Shown one piece after another: positions 25,739 to 42,208 of a stretch of DNA of 45,566 bases (position 1 is the stretch's first letter; each line of letters starts with the position of its first letter). The position numbers were made by a program, and so were the translations under genes. The notes beneath the pieces are model-generated. The model ran no database searches. It had not been told where the DNA came from and saw only the letters and a list, made by a program, of their open reading frames with translations. Origin of the DNA: Escherichia phage vB_EcoS_XY1; the sequence record NC_073325.1. The stretch is one strand, 5' to 3'.

Positions 25739-25936
25739 TTAGTTATTCTCCAGTATTTCTAACGCTTTCACGAGGTAACGTTTACGTAAAACATCAGTCT
25801 GCGCGCTATTAGCCCTGCGTATGTAGCCCGCAGCAGCCCTCATCTGTAGTTTTTCCACCGAACCATTCCCTATAACTGATGCGATACATTTAACTTCGAG
25901 TTCTTCGGTTATTTCTATCGTCGATACGTTGCCCAT
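25739..25936 (-). CDS. Hypothetical small protein
   Basis: 65 aa; GAGAG SD; first gene after a promoter-like TTGACT-N17-TATATT near 25955-25985. Confidence 0.3.
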   Translation of the reverse strand: MGNVSTIEITEELEVKCIASVIGNGSVEKLQMRAAAGYIRRANSAQTDVLRKRYLVKALEILENN

Positions 25937-26021
25937 TTCTCTCTACTCCGTTCTCGTTGTCGATGAAGTAAATATAATAGGGTCTACGGTAATAGTCAAC
26001 TAGTCATTACAGAAAATAGAT

Positions 26022-26052
26022 AAAAAAAATCCCGGCTGGGTCAGGGCCGGGA
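26022..26052 (-). terminator. Rho-independent terminator (3' end of a candidate small RNA)
   Basis: TCCCGGC-loop-GCCGGGA hairpin followed by T8 on the minus strand. Confidence 0.7.
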
Positions 26053-26092
26053 TAAAACTGGAGAGCAGAGGGATGGAACAGGAGGTGATTTA

Positions 26093-26121
26093 AGTATCGT
26101 CGGATTAGTCTCAGGTGTCAA
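26093..26121 (-). promoter_or_regulatory. Sigma70-like promoter between two terminators
   Basis: Minus orientation TTGACA-N17-GATACT, about 60 nt upstream of the 26022-26052 terminator. Confidence 0.4.
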
Positions 26122-26124
26122 TTG

Positions 26125-26156
26125 GTAAAATAAAACCCGGATTAGCGGTCCGGGTT
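26125..26156 (-). terminator. Rho-independent terminator after the lysis cassette
   Basis: AACCCGGA-loop-TCCGGGTT hairpin followed by TTTTATTTT on the minus strand. Confidence 0.65.
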
Positions 26157-26284
26157 TCGGTCATAAGCCCCTGAACCCTACGCAGTCTCCACCGCTTGGG
26201 CTGCTGCTTCGGGTTTACCAGGGCTTAGTATGCAAGCACAAGCAGCGTGGAAGTAATTTTACTAAATGCCTTCGTATTCGTCCA

Positions 26285-26770
26285 TCATTTAACAGCCCTC
26301 CCGATAGCCTCAGCCTCTTGCCACGGTTTACCGTCGAACAGCGCCAGACGTCCGGCTGTACGGCGACGCAGGCCGAGTAACGGTTTGCCGTTCTGGTTGA
26401 TGAACAGCGCCAGCTTAGCCCGCAGCGTCGGAATATCACCGTAACGCAGAGCCTTACCCGTGCCCGTAGTAGACGCAATCACGCCAGCGCCCGCGTTATA
26501 GACCAGGTCGCAAACAGCATCAAACTGCGCCTGCGTCAGTGAATGGTGTGCCGCTGCATCAACCGCAGCTACAGCCTTAGCCATATCGCGATTCAGTAAC
26601 AGCAAGCCCTGTCCTGGTGTGATGGTCTTACCTGGTGTTACGTCCGGCCCGTAGTGGCCGTAGCCTATGGTAAGGTACTTCTCATTCGGCGTAGCGCGAT
26701 ACGCAGTTCCACGGAACCCCTCGAATGCGGCGGTAAAATGCAATCCATTATCTGAAATATTTCGAGACAC
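26285..26770 (-). CDS. Endolysin, phage lysozyme-like (GH24-type)
   Basis: N-terminal FEGFRGTAYR...YLTIGYGH lysozyme motif; directly downstream of two holin-like genes. Confidence 0.75.
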   Translation of the reverse strand: MSRNISDNGLHFTAAFEGFRGTAYRATPNEKYLTIGYGHYGPDVTPGKTITPGQGLLLLNRDMAKAVAAVDAAAHHSLTQAQFDAVCDLVYNAGAGVIASTTGTGKALRYGDIPTLRAKLALFINQNGKPLLGLRRRTAGRLALFDGKPWQEAEAIGRAVK

Positions 26771-30842: not shown

Positions 30843-31072
30843 CCGAGTTCCAGTCCCGCGTATTTACGGCAGTCGTTTCATTAACCTGTAAAAAAGGGTC
30901 GTGCAGCGTTATGGACTTGCGCCGTAGTTATTTTAGGTACTATAGTTCCGCCATTATTGAAGGGTCGTTGAAGGTACTGGTTAAATCTGGTGTCGTGAAA
31001 AATGTTGGCGGGAAATATAGTGCTGTTGCCGAAGTTCGCGGAATGACCGCTACTTTAGAAGACCTGGAATAA
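30839..31072 (+). CDS. Hypothetical protein
   Basis: 77-aa ORF with ATGA overlap between the HTH gene and the primase-helicase. Confidence 0.3.
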   Translation: MTEFQSRVFTAVVSLTCKKGSCSVMDLRRSYFRYYSSAIIEGSLKVLVKSGVVKNVGGKYSAVAEVRGMTATLEDLE

Positions 31073-31130
31073 AAGAAAGCCCCGACGCGGTGAACGCCGA
31101 GGCTAAATTACTTGCTGAAGGAAATATAAC

Positions 31131-33389
31131 ATGTCCGATGTAATTTTATCCTACTCGTGGTCTCGTCGCAACGCGCGGGCCGAGAAAAAGGATATAAACG
31201 TCAGAACCACACACACGGCAACGCTGGGCGACCTGAAAGATTTAATCCAGCCGCTTGATGCTGTCCGTGACGGAATTAACCCGAAGACCGCACCCGGTTA
31301 TATCACCGCCGCGTGCGACTCCACACACAGCACCGTAAAAGACCCGGAAACCGGTGACTTTAAGCAAGCGCGTAAAGGCTTCTTCTATCGCTGTGATGCG
31401 TCTGTAAGCAAATCGTCGCTGGCGTATCTTGACTTCGATAGCGCAACACCGGAAGAGTATCGGGAAGCGGTGCGCCTGGTTAAGCGCAGCCGCCAGGCGA
31501 TGTGTCTCTACACCACGGCATCACATACCGACGAGTCGCCGCGCTTTCGCGTCGTCATGCCGCTGGCCCGCCCGGTTGAAGGTGGCGACATCATCCGTGT
31601 TCGCCATGGATTACTGGAGCACTTCTTCAAAGGCATGGGCGCGGACCGCAGCGGGTTCACTCTGTCGCAGCCGATGTACCTGCCGCCAGTTGGCTCTACT
31701 GTTATCTGGTCGCGCCGCAACGACCTGATTGACCCTGATGAGTTACTGGAAGGCGTCCCAGCCGTTGACATCAGCAGCGCATCTGATTACCAGATACCGG
31801 AAGAACTGCGCACCGCGTTTACAGATGCGTTTGAAGCACTGGCATTCGAGTACGGCGGCATCATGACGCCGCGTGGCCTTAAGATGCCAGCTACGCCAGA
31901 ACACGCAGAAAACTACAGCGACCCGACCCCGCGCCCGGACGACTTCCTGCTGTGCTTCCCGCGCGAGGGATATGAAGCGCCGAACGTAACGATGATTCAC
32001 GACACCGACATCACGGCAACCGAAGGCATGTCGCCGAAAGAGGTGTGGAAATACGCGTGTGATGCGACCGGGCTGCCGTTCAGTGAAGTCGCCGAGGCTA
32101 TCGGATGGGGTGCGCGTGAATCTGTTTCATGCAGCCTCGACGACCTGGAAGACGATGATGACTCAGAAGAGGACGAGCTACCGGAACCGGTAAAGGCTGA
32201 TTTCGTCGTTGAGGGGTACATGCCGTCAGATTGTATCTGGGATATTGTTGGGGAATCCGGCACGTACAAATCGTTCTATACGCTGGGGATGATGTACCTG
32301 AGCGCCGCCGGATACCGGTTTGCCGGGGCGGATACCCAGCGTTGCCACCATTTCTATATCGACGGTGAGGGAGGCGCAGCTACACGCACACGTATTGACG
32401 CGCTCGCGGCTAAATACGGCGAGGAAGGTAAAGATTACGTACATGTCATTGATATGGGTGAGGTGCTCGCCGCGCATGGTGATAAAAAAATCCCCGCGCT
32501 AATCCGCAGGATGCGTGAAGCTGCAGGGGACGAGCCTATTGGTATGGTCGCGTTCGATACCCTCAACCAGACGCTGGCCCTGACAATTGACAAGTTCGAC
32601 GAGAACAGTTCATCAACTGCAATTGGCATGGGTAAAGTTATCGCCATCCTTAAAAAAGTACGCGACGCAACTAAAGCCGCTGTGGGTGTCGTCCACCATA
32701 CGCCTAAGGGTGGAAAGAAAGCCCGTGGTAGCGGGGCGCTGTATGCCGGTGTTGATGTGGAGCTGACAATTGAGCGCGCTACCGACCGCCAGATAAACGT
32801 ATACCACTCGAAATTTAAGCATGGGCCTCAACAGAAAACGGTTGGCATGGTTCTGGAGTCGGTACAGTTCCGTGAAGCCCCGCCTCCGAAAGAATACCGT
32901 GCGGTTGAGTTCCTCGGTAGCACAGAGGAATACGGCACAATCGTAAACCTCGATCTGCCTGAGCCGCACAAGGCGCTTGTGCTGATGCCGTGGGGCTTCG
33001 AGCCGTTCAAAACTGACGAGGAGAAAGAGCGGGAAGAAGGGTTGACGAAAGAAGGTAAGCAAAAAGTAAAGGAAGAAGTTAAACGCGGCAGGGATGAAGT
33101 AAGGAAGGAGTCAATACTTTCGGCACTGGAAGACCTGCAACAGTCAGATGACACAGGTCGCGGTTTTACTCAGCAGCAGATAGTGGCTCGTTCCGGTGAC
33201 TTCTCTGTGACTAACACCCATCTTGATAAAATGTTGAAAGATGGAGAACTAATGCTTGGTTGCGATGCTAACGGCGAAGTAGTACCGAGAACATATCGTA
33301 TACCCGAAAGAATAGGTGATAGATTAAGGCCGAAGACACTATACGAACCAAATGAGATGCTGGTGGTGACAGAGGAGGATTTGGAATAG
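31131..33389 (+). CDS. Primase-helicase: primase-like N-terminal domain fused to a RecA-fold ATPase
   Basis: 752 aa; N-terminal LAYLDFD and SHTDESPRFRVVMPL motifs; Walker A GESGTYKS; Walker B-like MVAFDTL; VVHHTPKGG. Confidence 0.55.
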   Translation: MSDVILSYSWSRRNARAEKKDINVRTTHTATLGDLKDLIQPLDAVRDGINPKTAPGYITAACDSTHSTVKDPETGDFKQARKGFFYRCDASVSKSSLAYLDFDSATPEEYREAVRLVKRSRQAMCLYTTASHTDESPRFRVVMPLARPVEGGDIIRVRHGLLEHFFKGMGADRSGFTLSQPMYLPPVGSTVIWSRRNDLIDPDELLEGVPAVDISSASDYQIPEELRTAFTDAFEALAFEYGGIMTPRGLKMPATPEHAENYSDPTPRPDDFLLCFPREGYEAPNVTMIHDTDITATEGMSPKEVWKYACDATGLPFSEVAEAIGWGARESVSCSLDDLEDDDDSEEDELPEPVKADFVVEGYMPSDCIWDIVGESGTYKSFYTLGMMYLSAAGYRFAGADTQRCHHFYIDGEGGAATRTRIDALAAKYGEEGKDYVHVIDMGEVLAAHGDKKIPALIRRMREAAGDEPIGMVAFDTLNQTLALTIDKFDENSSSTAIGMGKVIAILKKVRDATKAAVGVVHHTPKGGKKARGSGALYAGVDVELTIERATDRQINVYHSKFKHGPQQKTVGMVLESVQFREAPPPKEYRAVEFLGSTEEYGTIVNLDLPEPHKALVLMPWGFEPFKTDEEKEREEGLTKEGKQKVKEEVKRGRDEVRKESILSALEDLQQSDDTGRGFTQQQIVARSGDFSVTNTHLDKMLKDGELMLGCDANGEVVPRTYRIPERIGDRLRPKTLYEPNEMLVVTEEDLE

Positions 33390-33686: not shown

Positions 33687-33715
33687 TTGACATGTGAATA
33701 GTTCGCTATTATAGT
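33687..33715 (+). promoter_or_regulatory. Near-consensus sigma70 promoter with embedded operator palindrome
   Basis: TTGACA-N17-TATAGT; spacer contains AATAG-TTCG-CTATT; 29 bp upstream of the 33744 ATG. Confidence 0.6.
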
Positions 33716-36782: not shown

Positions 36783-36811
36783 TTGACATCTGAATAGTTA
36801 GCTATTATAGT
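36783..36811 (+). promoter_or_regulatory. Sigma70 promoter with operator palindrome upstream of the SSB/polymerase operon
   Basis: TTGACA-N17-TATAGT with AATAG-TTAG-CTATT in the spacer; nearly identical to 33687-33715. Confidence 0.6.
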
Positions 36812-40593: not shown

Positions 40594-40787
40594 TGAATAA
40601 ACACGAATACGACCGCAAACCAGCACGTGACATCGTACCGGGCGACATGATTTTCAACGTTAAGACCCGTCGGCCTGTTGCCGTGGATACGGTGTTCGTC
40701 GAGTCGAACGGTAAACTGGTTATCGAAGACGTAACTGGCAACGTTACCGCGTTCGGGCGTAAAGAGCTTGTTCTGGTGGCAAAATGA
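40593..40787 (+). CDS. Hypothetical small protein
   Basis: 64-aa ORF with overlapping stop/start. Confidence 0.3.
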   Translation: MNKHEYDRKPARDIVPGDMIFNVKTRRPVAVDTVFVESNGKLVIEDVTGNVTAFGRKELVLVAK

Positions 40788-42208
40788 GTAAGTTTCAAAG
40801 GCGCGAATATCAGAAGCTCATGACTTCGTTCATGCTACAGCATCCGCGCTGTAATATCTGGTGCGGCATGGGAGGGGGCAAAACCTCCTCAACTATGTGG
40901 GTGCTTAATCGCCTGTTTCGCAACGGGCAGCTTACAGAAGAGGACCGCGTGTTAATCCTCGCCCCGTTGCGTGTTGCGTCGGGTACGTGGCCTGCAGAAC
41001 AAGAGAAATGGAACTTCCCTTGTCTGCGTGTCGTCGATGCGACCGGTTCGGAGAAGCGCCGCATCGCGGCGCTGGAGTCAGACGCTAACGTGGTGTGCAC
41101 TAACTACGAAGTTATCGAGTGGCTAATTGACTACTACGGCAAAGACGACTGGCCTTTTACGGTTATCGTTGCCGATGAAAGCACGAAGCTTAAATCGTTC
41201 CGCCGCCGTTCGGGTGGTAGCAAGCGGGCAAAGGCGCTCAGCAAGGTTGCGTTCGGAAAGGTTAAGCGTTTCATCAACCTTACTGGTACACCGTCGCCAA
41301 ACGGCCTCAAGGACTTGTGGGGCCAGAACTGGTTTATCGACGCTGGCGAGCGCCTGGGGTCATCGTACACGGCATTCACCGACCGCTGGTTTAACTCGGT
41401 ACAGAAGGGTAAATCGGCGATGGCACGCGAGTACCACGCGCGACCAGGTGCCGATAATGAGATTCATCAGAAGATGAAAGACATCAGCCTTACCATCGAC
41501 CCCGCAGAGTGGTTTGGATGTGAAGCGCCGATTATTGTACCGGTTGAAATAGACCTACCGAAGAAGGCGCGTCAGGCGTACATCGATATGGAGGAGAAAT
41601 TATTCGCAGAACTGGAGAGCGGGGAAGTTGAAGCGGCTAACGCTGCGGCGAAGACCTCAAAGTGCTTGCAGATTGCATCTGGTGCCGTGTATGTGTCAGG
41701 GCCGGATGGCGAAGCGACCAAAGACTGGGAGAAAGTGCACGACACGAAACTGGATGCGCTCGAGTCGATTGTTGAGGAGTTGCAGGGTGCGCCGTTGCTG
41801 GTAGCCTATCAGTTTAAACACGAACTGGAGCGTATCCTTAAGCGATTCCCACAGGCACAGGCGTTCGCCAAAGGCGCTAGGGGGAACAAGCAGATGGAAG
41901 CGTGGAACCGTGGGGAAATCGAGATTTTATGCGTGCATCCTGCGTCAGCCGGGCATGGTTTGAATTTACAGGACGGGGGTCATCATCTGGCGTTCATCTC
42001 GCAAGGCTGGAACCTTGAGCACTATTTGCAGGTTGTTGAGCGCATAGGCCCAGTCCGCCAGAAACAGGCGGGTCACGAGCGCCCGGTGTTCCTTTATCAC
42101 ATCGTTGCTAAAGACACTCTGGACGGGGTTGTCGCCGCGCGTACCGACGAGAAGAAATCGGTACAGGAAGAGTTGCTTAATTACATGAAGAGACGAGGTA
42201 AGAAATGA
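40784..42208 (+). CDS. Superfamily-2 helicase (SNF2/DEAD-like)
   Basis: Walker A GMGGGKT; DExx box VIVADEST; 474 aa; adjacent to the VRR-NUC gene. Confidence 0.75.
   Translation: MSKFQRREYQKLMTSFMLQHPRCNIWCGMGGGKTSSTMWVLNRLFRNGQLTEEDRVLILAPLRVASGTWPAEQEKWNFPCLRVVDATGSEKRRIAALESDANVVCTNYEVIEWLIDYYGKDDWPFTVIVADESTKLKSFRRRSGGSKRAKALSKVAFGKVKRFINLTGTPSPNGLKDLWGQNWFIDAGERLGSSYTAFTDRWFNSVQKGKSAMAREYHARPGADNEIHQKMKDISLTIDPAEWFGCEAPIIVPVEIDLPKKARQAYIDMEEKLFAELESGEVEAANAAAKTSKCLQIASGAVYVSGPDGEATKDWEKVHDTKLDALESIVEELQGAPLLVAYQFKHELERILKRFPQAQAFAKGARGNKQMEAWNRGEIEILCVHPASAGHGLNLQDGGHHLAFISQGWNLEHYLQVVERIGPVRQKQAGHERPVFLYHIVAKDTLDGVVAARTDEKKSVQEELLNYMKRRGKK

Follow-up and report, generated by a model that had tools for sequence, protein, structure and literature searches.

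The stretch analyzed here, hereafter the window, comprises 45,566 nucleotides (nt) of Escherichia phage vB_EcoS_XY1 (NC_073325.1), nearly the whole genome of a member of the genus Kagunavirus (Guernseyvirinae) that is 96% identical to Escherichia phage BUCT825 over the region compared. On its minus strand, a run of small open reading frames (ORFs), two holin genes and an endolysin gene (26770-26285) is followed by a 350-nt non-coding interval, after which come ten small ORFs, the small and large terminase genes and the structural genes. Our subject is a candidate small RNA gene lodged in this interval, which is made up of the following parts: a promoter-like site (P1), with the -35 hexamer TTGACA (26116..26121) and the -10 hexamer GATACT (26093..26098) separated by 17 nt on the minus strand; a predicted RNA of ~58-65 nt (26022..26086, minus strand) that would extend from A26086 (the 7th nt past the -10 hexamer) into a run of eight uridines (U8); and an intrinsic terminator (T2; 26022..26053, minus strand) with an 8-base-pair (bp) GC-rich stem, the 9-nt loop CCUGACCCA and the said U8. 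The original prediction, which drew on the letters of this DNA, had proposed a discrete short transcript of this kind between two terminators. Its promoter-like site, TTGACA-N17-GATACT, indeed lies on the minus strand where it was placed, with a score of 10/12; its GC hairpin followed by U8 at 26022-26052 is likewise present, albeit with eight pairs instead of seven and beginning at 26053.

Taken singly, the sequence features of the window are not above chance (e.g., a 3-kilobase (kb) region holds four promoter-like sites against 4.0 expected), and significance arises only through conservation. A BLAST search against phage genomes recovered 443 records that match the interval in part. For the majority of Kagunavirus hits and many Jerseyvirus ones, the match starts at 26121, the first base of TTGACA, and extends to the start codon at 25936, while in other Jerseyvirus records the detectable match starts later, at ~26104 to 26029. 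The boundary of the conserved block is the -35 hexamer, regardless of whether the DNA upstream is one of several endolysin 3′ ends or a terminator-bearing insert described below. To obtain a sample unbiased with respect to P1, we fetched viral contigs by means of the motif of a second promoter (P2), which lies just past T2, and aligned 45 distinct Kagunavirus and Jerseyvirus sequences; the conservation of P2 in this set is by construction, as it was the search pattern. The pattern TTGAC[A/G]-17-[G/C]ATACT is present in 45/45 of these, with TTGACA in 44 and TTGACG in one, and GATACT in 44 and CATACT in one. The surroundings of the hexamers vary, with 22 spacers, five discriminators and 11 upstream 10-mers among the same sequences. 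Between Kagunavirus and Jerseyvirus the hexamers are ~99-100% identical and the spacer ~53%, and one contig (L027) combines an unrelated spacer with CATACT as its -10 hexamer, the spacing still being 17 nt. The six bases past the -10 hexamer, i.e., the discriminator, come in the versions TAAATC, AAACCT, GGTGTC, GGTTTC and AAACCC, and conservation restarts at the 7th base, which is the expected transcription start, Kagunavirus reading ACCUCCUG there and Jerseyvirus GCUCCUG. A working sigma-70 promoter coupled to a constrained transcript would be expected to leave such a pattern; the firing of P1 in cells and the exact ends of the RNA are inferred. Within these two genera we encountered no instance of the reverse pattern, in which the promoter hexamers are lost and the terminators kept.

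The predicted RNA folds (ViennaRNA) into a 34-nt single strand followed by the terminator hairpin (z = -2.1); the transcribed stretch ...AAATCACCTCCTGTTCC... upstream of the hairpin is ~33-34 nt in length, unstructured, C/U-rich and G-poor. Two conserved boxes are discernible therein. Box 1 is the 5′-terminal ACCUCCUG (26079..26086, minus strand), of which CUCCUG is conserved in both Kagunavirus and Jerseyvirus and is maintained even as the discriminator just upstream varies. Box 2, CAUCCCUCU (26067..26075, minus strand), is the best conserved single-stranded stretch and has a UUCCAYCC-like core in common with the Cornellvirus group. CUCCUG and CAUCCCUCU are both maintained as unpaired sequence in Kagunavirus and Jerseyvirus, and within Kagunavirus the two boxes show a conservation of 0.92, as against 0.87 and 0.77 for the promoter spacers. 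Directly 5′ of the hairpin is a U-rich stretch, UUUU (26054..26057, minus strand) and then AU, which takes the form UUUUAU in Kagunavirus, UUUAU in Jerseyvirus and UUUG in the Cornellvirus group. The single-stranded stretch spans 22-26 nt and is G-poor and largely or wholly unpaired in all twelve variants of the RNA, the 5′ part being predicted as unpaired in ten of them and forming only a 2-3 bp helix in the other two. A covariance model (R1) built from the Kagunavirus and Jerseyvirus RNAs alone matches 26022..26086 exactly at 95.6 bits and recovers one copy per related genome, with 72-96 bits in Kagunavirus and Jerseyvirus and 17-28 bits in the Cornellvirus group. We rejected the idea of extra copies in the genome, as the weak hit of the model at 31072-31134 is merely another terminator.

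In T2, A26053-C26046 pair with G26036-U26029 (-13.8 kcal/mol; ViennaRNA), and U8 occupies 26029-26022; a simple terminator scan overlooked this hairpin only because its loop limit was 8. Between Kagunavirus and Jerseyvirus the stem displays one compensatory change from C-G to U-A and one G-U pair. In the model-fitted alignment, three of the eight pairs change on both sides and 98.2% of the cells are paired, versus 27-57% in slid controls, with the compensatory changes spanning Kagunavirus, Jerseyvirus, Cornellvirus and phiEap-2. The covariation that the original prediction had suggested looking for in related phages is therefore present, and together with the hexamers and spacing of P1 it lends comparative support to a discrete short transcript. 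All twelve variants of T2 are predicted to fold, with energies of -10.5 to -18.6 kcal/mol and U7-U14. A comparable architecture is seen after the lysozyme gene in Cornellvirus (FSL SP-031, GRNsp27, Shemara and others) and in Enterobacter phage phiEap-2: a C-rich single strand, a hairpin whose stem sequence differs from that of Kagunavirus and Jerseyvirus, at least eight U, an ATCT linker and P2. In SP-031 and phiEap-2 a P1-like site, TGGACG-16-TATACT or TATATT, is also found at the end of the lysozyme gene, the -10 hexamer of SP-031 being TATACT.

Conservation reaches deepest, through every lineage, in the hairpin, the U-run, the ATCT linker and P2, and this favors the chief rival explanation, namely that the block is a terminator/insulator module and nothing else. 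Under it, T2 would end the lysis operon, the U-run and the AT-rich linker would feed P2, the C/U stretch would be an unstructured spacer in a 3′ untranslated region (UTR), the RNA from P1 would be at most an inert by-product, and the block would provide a homologous flank for the exchange of variable genes. The highly variable genes on both sides of the block fit such a recombination linker; the core and T2 occur with no detectable promoter in two Cornellvirus-like contigs; the single-sequence features are within chance; and the target search described below came up empty, with seed pairing at the level of composition. Nevertheless, the conservation of P1 in its hexamers only, at a fixed spacing over 22 spacers and 11 upstream contexts, is hard to account for without selection on promoter function. 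The restart of conservation at the predicted +1, the conservation of the two boxes above that of the promoter spacers in Kagunavirus, and the retention of P1, RNA and T2 behind another terminator also speak against a mere insulator. We accordingly regard this explanation as unlikely, while acknowledging it as a real rival.

That other terminator, T1 (26127..26157, minus strand), has a 9-10 bp stem (AAACCCGGA/TCCGGGTTT) followed by UUUUAUUUU, with the loop CCGCTAA and the tail TATTTT, and marks the end of the lysis operon in the source phage. It belongs to an accessory segment of 165 nt (26122..26286, minus strand), which runs from the endolysin stop to P1, contains a long conserved hairpin in addition to T1, and lies outside the conserved unit. 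Thus, the terminator ascribed to the lysis cassette does exist, at 26157-26127 rather than 26156-26125, and the candidate RNA is situated between two terminators in the source phage but not in the family: the insert is found in only ~40 Kagunavirus records and T1 is absent from most relatives, in which the endolysin stop codon abuts or overlaps TTGACA. If either of the two lacks conservation, then, it is T1 and not P1. The accessory segment has a fold z-score of -2.2, and its long hairpin (~26235-26165) shows compensatory changes between phages (GCCCUGG/CAGGGGC versus GCCUUGG/CAGAGGC); a deletion variant of the insert retains T1 alone. In one contig (L050), the insert directly follows the GGTTGA of a different endolysin type, as if it had been inserted at the TGA with the -35 hexamer rebuilt at its own 3′ end. 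Possibly it is a small mobile segment, or else a further non-coding RNA.

The phages with this insert also bear on a further explanation, which is that the tail and hairpin constitute a cis-acting element in the 3′ UTR of the lysis messenger RNA (mRNA). Through fold-back onto purine-rich ribosome-binding sites of the same mRNA, or through recruitment of Hfq or RNases, such an element would govern how stable the holin/endolysin message is or how well it is translated, and hence when lysis occurs. Since the endolysin stop abuts the block in most relatives, the whole sequence is there the 3′ UTR of the lysis mRNA, and in the Cornellvirus-like contigs the core is placed directly before the terminator whatever lies upstream. 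However, in the source phage and ~40 relatives T1 ends the lysis mRNA before the element is reached, and yet P1, RNA and T2 are all intact. Moreover, only weak duplexes are predicted with the initiation regions of holin and endolysin (Kagunavirus, -14 to -17 kcal/mol; Jerseyvirus, -12 to -15 kcal/mol; Cornellvirus, -5 to -14 kcal/mol), on which ground we also rejected the lysis genes as targets in general. As the conserved P1 is left unexplained too, a purely cis-acting role appears quite improbable to us.

The unit adjoins the lysis genes and is followed by ~25 kb of packaging and structural genes with several internal terminators, a location also reminiscent of the pR′-6S RNA-tR′ unit of phage lambda. 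By this analogy, transcripts from P1 would ordinarily stop at T2 until, at some stage, a phage or host factor rendered them resistant to it, allowing them to run into the terminase/structural operon, with the short RNA as a by-product of the sort that lambda 6S RNA, a substrate of Q antitermination, represents. The constitutive-looking sigma-70 promoter, the short transcript and the strong terminator agree with this, and the minimum-free-energy fold predicted for a read-through RNA pairs the C/U boxes with the Shine-Dalgarno sequence and AUG of the first downstream gene. Against it, that fold is no better than those of shuffled sequences (z = -1.0), and the stronger second promoter P2 just past T2 makes read-through from P1 unnecessary. 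No Q-like or N-like antiterminator was detected when 20 flanking small proteins from this part of the genome were compared with PHROGs (they comprise holins, terminase and unknowns), and there is no -10-like pause element (a TAnnnT-like hexamer) in the first 15 transcribed bases, ACCTCCTGTTCCATC. We also rejected a boxA/nut-like element, UGCUCU followed by a hairpin, because several contigs have a G-to-A change that disrupts the boxA-like UGCUCU, and because the hairpin belongs to a terminator and does not form a boxB-type loop. Read-through is consequently an improbable account of the unit. As with lambda 6S, OOP and PreS RNAs, we would here have a short phage transcript that host RNA polymerase initiates at a constitutive-type promoter and ends at an intrinsic terminator. 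However, there is no sequence similarity to these RNAs (no Rfam hit; the sar match has 13 bits, E = 9), and unlike 6S the unit comes after the lysis genes rather than before them, is ~65 nt as opposed to 194 nt in length, and is followed by a second promoter after its terminator.

The best-supported reading, which we rank ahead of the plain terminator/insulator, is that Guernseyvirinae phages carry, at the 3′ end of their lysis operon, a discrete and conserved gene for a small non-coding RNA; we advance it tentatively, with somewhat less than even confidence. In this proposal, host sigma-70 RNA polymerase would start at P1, at about A26086, and stop at T2 to yield an RNA of ~60-65 nt, whose first ~33 nt, being pyrimidine-rich and G-poor, would present the conserved boxes CUCCUG and CAUCCCUCU. 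The 3′ part (UUUUAU, GC hairpin and U8) has the make-up of the module used by Hfq-binding small RNAs (sRNAs) and may be bound by Hfq, whereas the single-stranded boxes would act by base-pairing with purine-rich ribosome-binding or start-codon regions of host or phage mRNAs, thereby altering the translation or stability of the target. In relatives without T1, the same sequence would double as the 3′ end of the lysis mRNA, from which the RNA might be released by processing. We found no report of a small RNA of Guernseyvirinae in the literature, and the RNA proposed here looks to be a previously undescribed phage small RNA; the GenBank record of fBC-Eco01 independently annotates a promoter, a terminator and a promoter at exactly these places, without comment.

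The closest parallels to such a gene are the type I 3′-UTR-derived Hfq-dependent sRNAs with their own promoter, such as Salmonella DapZ and E. coli MicL. As in these, the upstream coding sequence ends within or right next to the promoter: the endolysin TGA lies inside TTGACA in fBC-Eco01, and the -35 hexamer lies inside the lysozyme gene in SP-031. The candidate likewise shares the Rho-independent terminator of the mRNA, T2 being the only terminator in most relatives, and its small size goes together with a single-stranded seed, uridine-rich sequence and, at the 3′ end, at least seven consecutive U. In contrast to DapZ and MicL, it is encoded by a virulent phage, its Hfq binding and targeting are putative, its C/U-rich seed is not conserved across the whole subfamily, and in the source phage the lysis mRNA ends short of it at T1, within the 165-nt insert. 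Uridine-rich sequence just ahead of the terminator hairpin is a hallmark of Hfq-type sRNAs, and the candidate has it in each group as UUUUAU, UUUAU or UUUG by genus; a discrete transcript with its own promoter is indicated computationally by the presence of P1 in 45/45 sequences. Terminators of Hfq-binding sRNAs end in at least seven U (PMC5558911), and the candidate has U8 in the source phage and U7-U14 in relatives. A phage precedent exists: lambda encodes Hfq-dependent sRNAs, of which PreS acts on host mRNAs via Hfq (bioRxiv 10.1101/2024.10.31.621285).

Several considerations weigh against our proposal. The conservation of the block could largely stem from its other jobs, i.e., the termination of the lysis operon and the provision of AT-rich upstream DNA to P2. 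The diversity of the sample is modest, amounting to essentially three lineages, such that fewer independent events underlie the counts than these suggest. Conservation of the single-stranded sequence is confined to Kagunavirus and Jerseyvirus, the C-rich core of the Cornellvirus group being different (AUUCCACCCAGCCAGC), and in the Cornellvirus-like contigs the distance from the -10 hexamer to the core varies by 0, 32, ~75 or ~100 nt on account of inserts. Two of these contigs (L158 and L162) have no detectable promoter even though the core and T2 are present; in them, the RNA could derive only from the lysis mRNA, whether as its 3′ end or as a processing product. The sole RNA-seq study of a Kagunavirus used bead-purified standard libraries and had intergenic RNA outside its scope. 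Time-course RNA-seq reads of one Kagunavirus, vB_Eco_K1B4, are public (PRJNA939978/PRJCA028359). Finally, a genome-wide duplex scan combined with a ranking of initiation regions in three phage genomes yielded no phage target that is outstanding or common to the genera. The most attractive candidate, the purine-rich initiation region of the first P2 gene in the same block, forms predicted duplexes of -21.7 kcal/mol in Kagunavirus and -22.0 kcal/mol in Jerseyvirus and ranks 5/87, 7/76 and, in Cornellvirus, 39/81. We nevertheless rejected pairing with the 5′ UTR or ribosome-binding site of this gene, whether in trans or in cis, because composition suffices to explain it and it is missing in Cornellvirus and phiEap-2; further, where the seed or the UTR varies in nature, the other does not change to match.

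The original prediction had also drawn attention to a CACCUCC stretch matching the 3′ end of 16S ribosomal RNA (rRNA) and had envisaged translational control through pairing with Shine-Dalgarno sequences. The match is real: CACCTCC lies at 26087-26081, and the 10-mer ATCACCTCCT at 26089-26080 (Box 1 with three upstream bases), which occurs only once in the window, is identical to the 3′ tail of 16S rRNA (GAUCACCUCCUUA). However, CACCTCC is found five times in the window against 3.84 expected, i.e., at chance frequency, and with +1 at A26086 only ACCUCCU of the 10-mer would be transcribed. The stretch is specific to Kagunavirus: Jerseyvirus has GCUCCUG at this place, the motif reading CUGCUCCUG or UCGCUCCUG, two contigs (L037 and L042) have CACUCCUU, and the motif is absent from the Cornellvirus group and phiEap-2. 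Duplexes with the nearest conserved ribosome-binding site are no better than those of composition-matched shuffled seeds (p = 0.19, 0.07, 0.65 and 0.84). With shuffled seeds performing equally and no phage target in common, translational control by Shine-Dalgarno pairing gains no specific backing, and a specific anti-Shine-Dalgarno mechanism is unsupported; a general propensity to pair with ribosome-binding sites follows from the RNA being C/U-rich. The pyrimidine-rich seed (CUCCUG and CAUCCCUCU) may pair with purine-rich sites. A more radical version would have the Kagunavirus RNA, starting with the 16S tail copy AUCACCUCCU and abundantly produced from replicating phage DNA, serve as a free anti-Shine-Dalgarno sequence, which either competes at strong ribosome-binding sites and globally re-programs translation in infection or acts as a decoy for a host factor or toxin that recognizes the 16S tail; we consider this very improbable. 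The best duplex predicted in the whole genome is at 41608-41652 on the plus strand, within a gene at 40784-42208, and includes an 11-nt perfect complement, AACTGGAGAGC, to the RNA segment GCUCUCCAGUU; with ~0.6 such 11-mers expected by chance, it is probably meaningless.

C/U-rich seeds with UCCC motifs that mask Shine-Dalgarno sequences are familiar from the Staphylococcus aureus RNAs RsaE and RNAIII. The candidate resembles these in having unpaired pyrimidine-rich motifs complementary to GGAG/AGGAGG-type ribosome-binding sites; unlike them, with their motifs in hairpin loops and their proven targets, it bears the motifs in a linear 5′ tail and its pairing is at the level of composition. There is no Rfam match at gathering thresholds in the whole window, and we thus rejected membership in a known RNA family, the matches below threshold being driven by terminators. 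The best of these are to the Betaproteobacteria toxic small RNA (RF02278; 25 bits, E = 0.0057) and the Burkholderia anti-hemB RNA (RF02837; 19.6 bits, E = 0.03), both mostly terminator-based and below the respective gathering scores of 50 and 49.5. These RNAs share with the candidate a pyrimidine-rich single-stranded 5′ part, a GC hairpin and a long U tail, and the four RF02278 copies listed for Burkholderia are of similar compactness at 57-92 nt (PMC4603805). Given the sub-threshold, terminator-based matches and the different host clade, we see them as analogues and not homologues.

We also rejected the possibility that the interval codes for a small protein. The only ORF is one of 26 codons that starts with a TTG in the -35 hexamer; it has no ATG, its frame is not conserved, and indels of 2-4 nt between Kagunavirus and Jerseyvirus break every reading frame, in line with the prediction that there is no ORF. 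Yet gp59 of Salmonella phage Shelanagig is annotated as a gene spanning the end of the endolysin gene, P1, the RNA and T2 (contig L005, 475-678), and features labeled as hypothetical proteins underlie the matched interval in several other GenBank records. Because of the frame-breaking indels between relatives, these protein-coding calls across P1, RNA and T2 are probably spurious. No transfer RNA (tRNA) or transfer-messenger RNA (tmRNA) was found in the whole window. A host origin or mimicry of a host sRNA was likewise rejected, with no match in 5,426 E. coli genomes. In a scan of species-representative genomes, the only finds were Jerseyvirus-type sequences in the Bacteroidota assembly of Taishania pollutisoli strain CZZ-1, three contigs of which (scaffolds 22, 45 and 47; L163-L165) hold copies of the whole block, two of them on scaffolds of ~840 bp; these are most likely phage contamination of the assembly. 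A scan of viral contigs with the motif TTGAC-N19-ATACT...TCCCTCT gave mostly chance matches, with a terminator following only in Guernseyvirinae contigs.

The regulatory RNAs of virulent (non-lysogenic) phages are still poorly charted, and the Guernseyvirinae (Kagunavirus, Jerseyvirus and Cornellvirus) find wide use in phage therapy and biocontrol against E. coli and Salmonella. Should the RNA prove real, an unannotated and probably abundant regulator sits beside the lysis genes in hundreds of sequenced genomes; it might influence host translation, the timing of lysis or the expression of the variable early genes, and it would furnish a compact natural example of a 3′-UTR-type sRNA in a phage. 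If the block is a terminator/insulator only, the finding would be an ordinary one. There is in addition some value for annotation in recognizing the spurious ORFs placed across the interval in several GenBank records.

Downstream of T2, the same conserved block contains P2 (TTGACT-17-TATATT; 25971..25999, minus strand), the promoter of the operon of small ORFs, terminase and structural genes. It is strong, with a score of 10/12, and starts 22 nt past the U-run (30 nt after T2); the Cornellvirus equivalent at the same place is TTGCAT-17-TATAGT. It is followed by a conserved, purine-rich 5′ UTR of 28 nt, AUCGACAACGAGAACGGAGUAGAGAGAA (25937..25964, minus strand), which ends at the ATG at 25936. 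P2 and this UTR are nearly invariant across Kagunavirus and Jerseyvirus, and the first ORF, from 25936, differs by contig (L002-L050), with many unrelated N-termini; the Cornellvirus group is organized alike, though its UTR differs. The arrangement resembles a fixed expression cassette ahead of a hypervariable early-gene slot.

Several deposited genomes, namely those of LP31 (NC_073205.1), PSDA-2, vB_STM-ZS, vB_SenS_SE1, PSP2-22 and JSSK01, start or end within the block, in the U-run, in the P2 leader or just past the endolysin stop, which may reflect arbitrary linearization or else real ends or assembly breaks. In phage Jersey (genes 09/10; L156, 7501-7996), an annotated spanin is found among the head genes, far from the holin-endolysin cassette, and the lysis module that ends at T2 is therefore incomplete. 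On the plus strand of the window, two near-consensus promoters (TTGACA-17-TATAGT, 11/12) at 33687-33715 and 36783-36811 are identical at 27/29 positions, including the spacer TTGACATNTGAATAGTTNGCTATTATAGT, with none expected by chance; P2 has the CTATTATA part in common with them. The conserved spacer of these two promoters suggests a common operator or promoter class for the replication arm.

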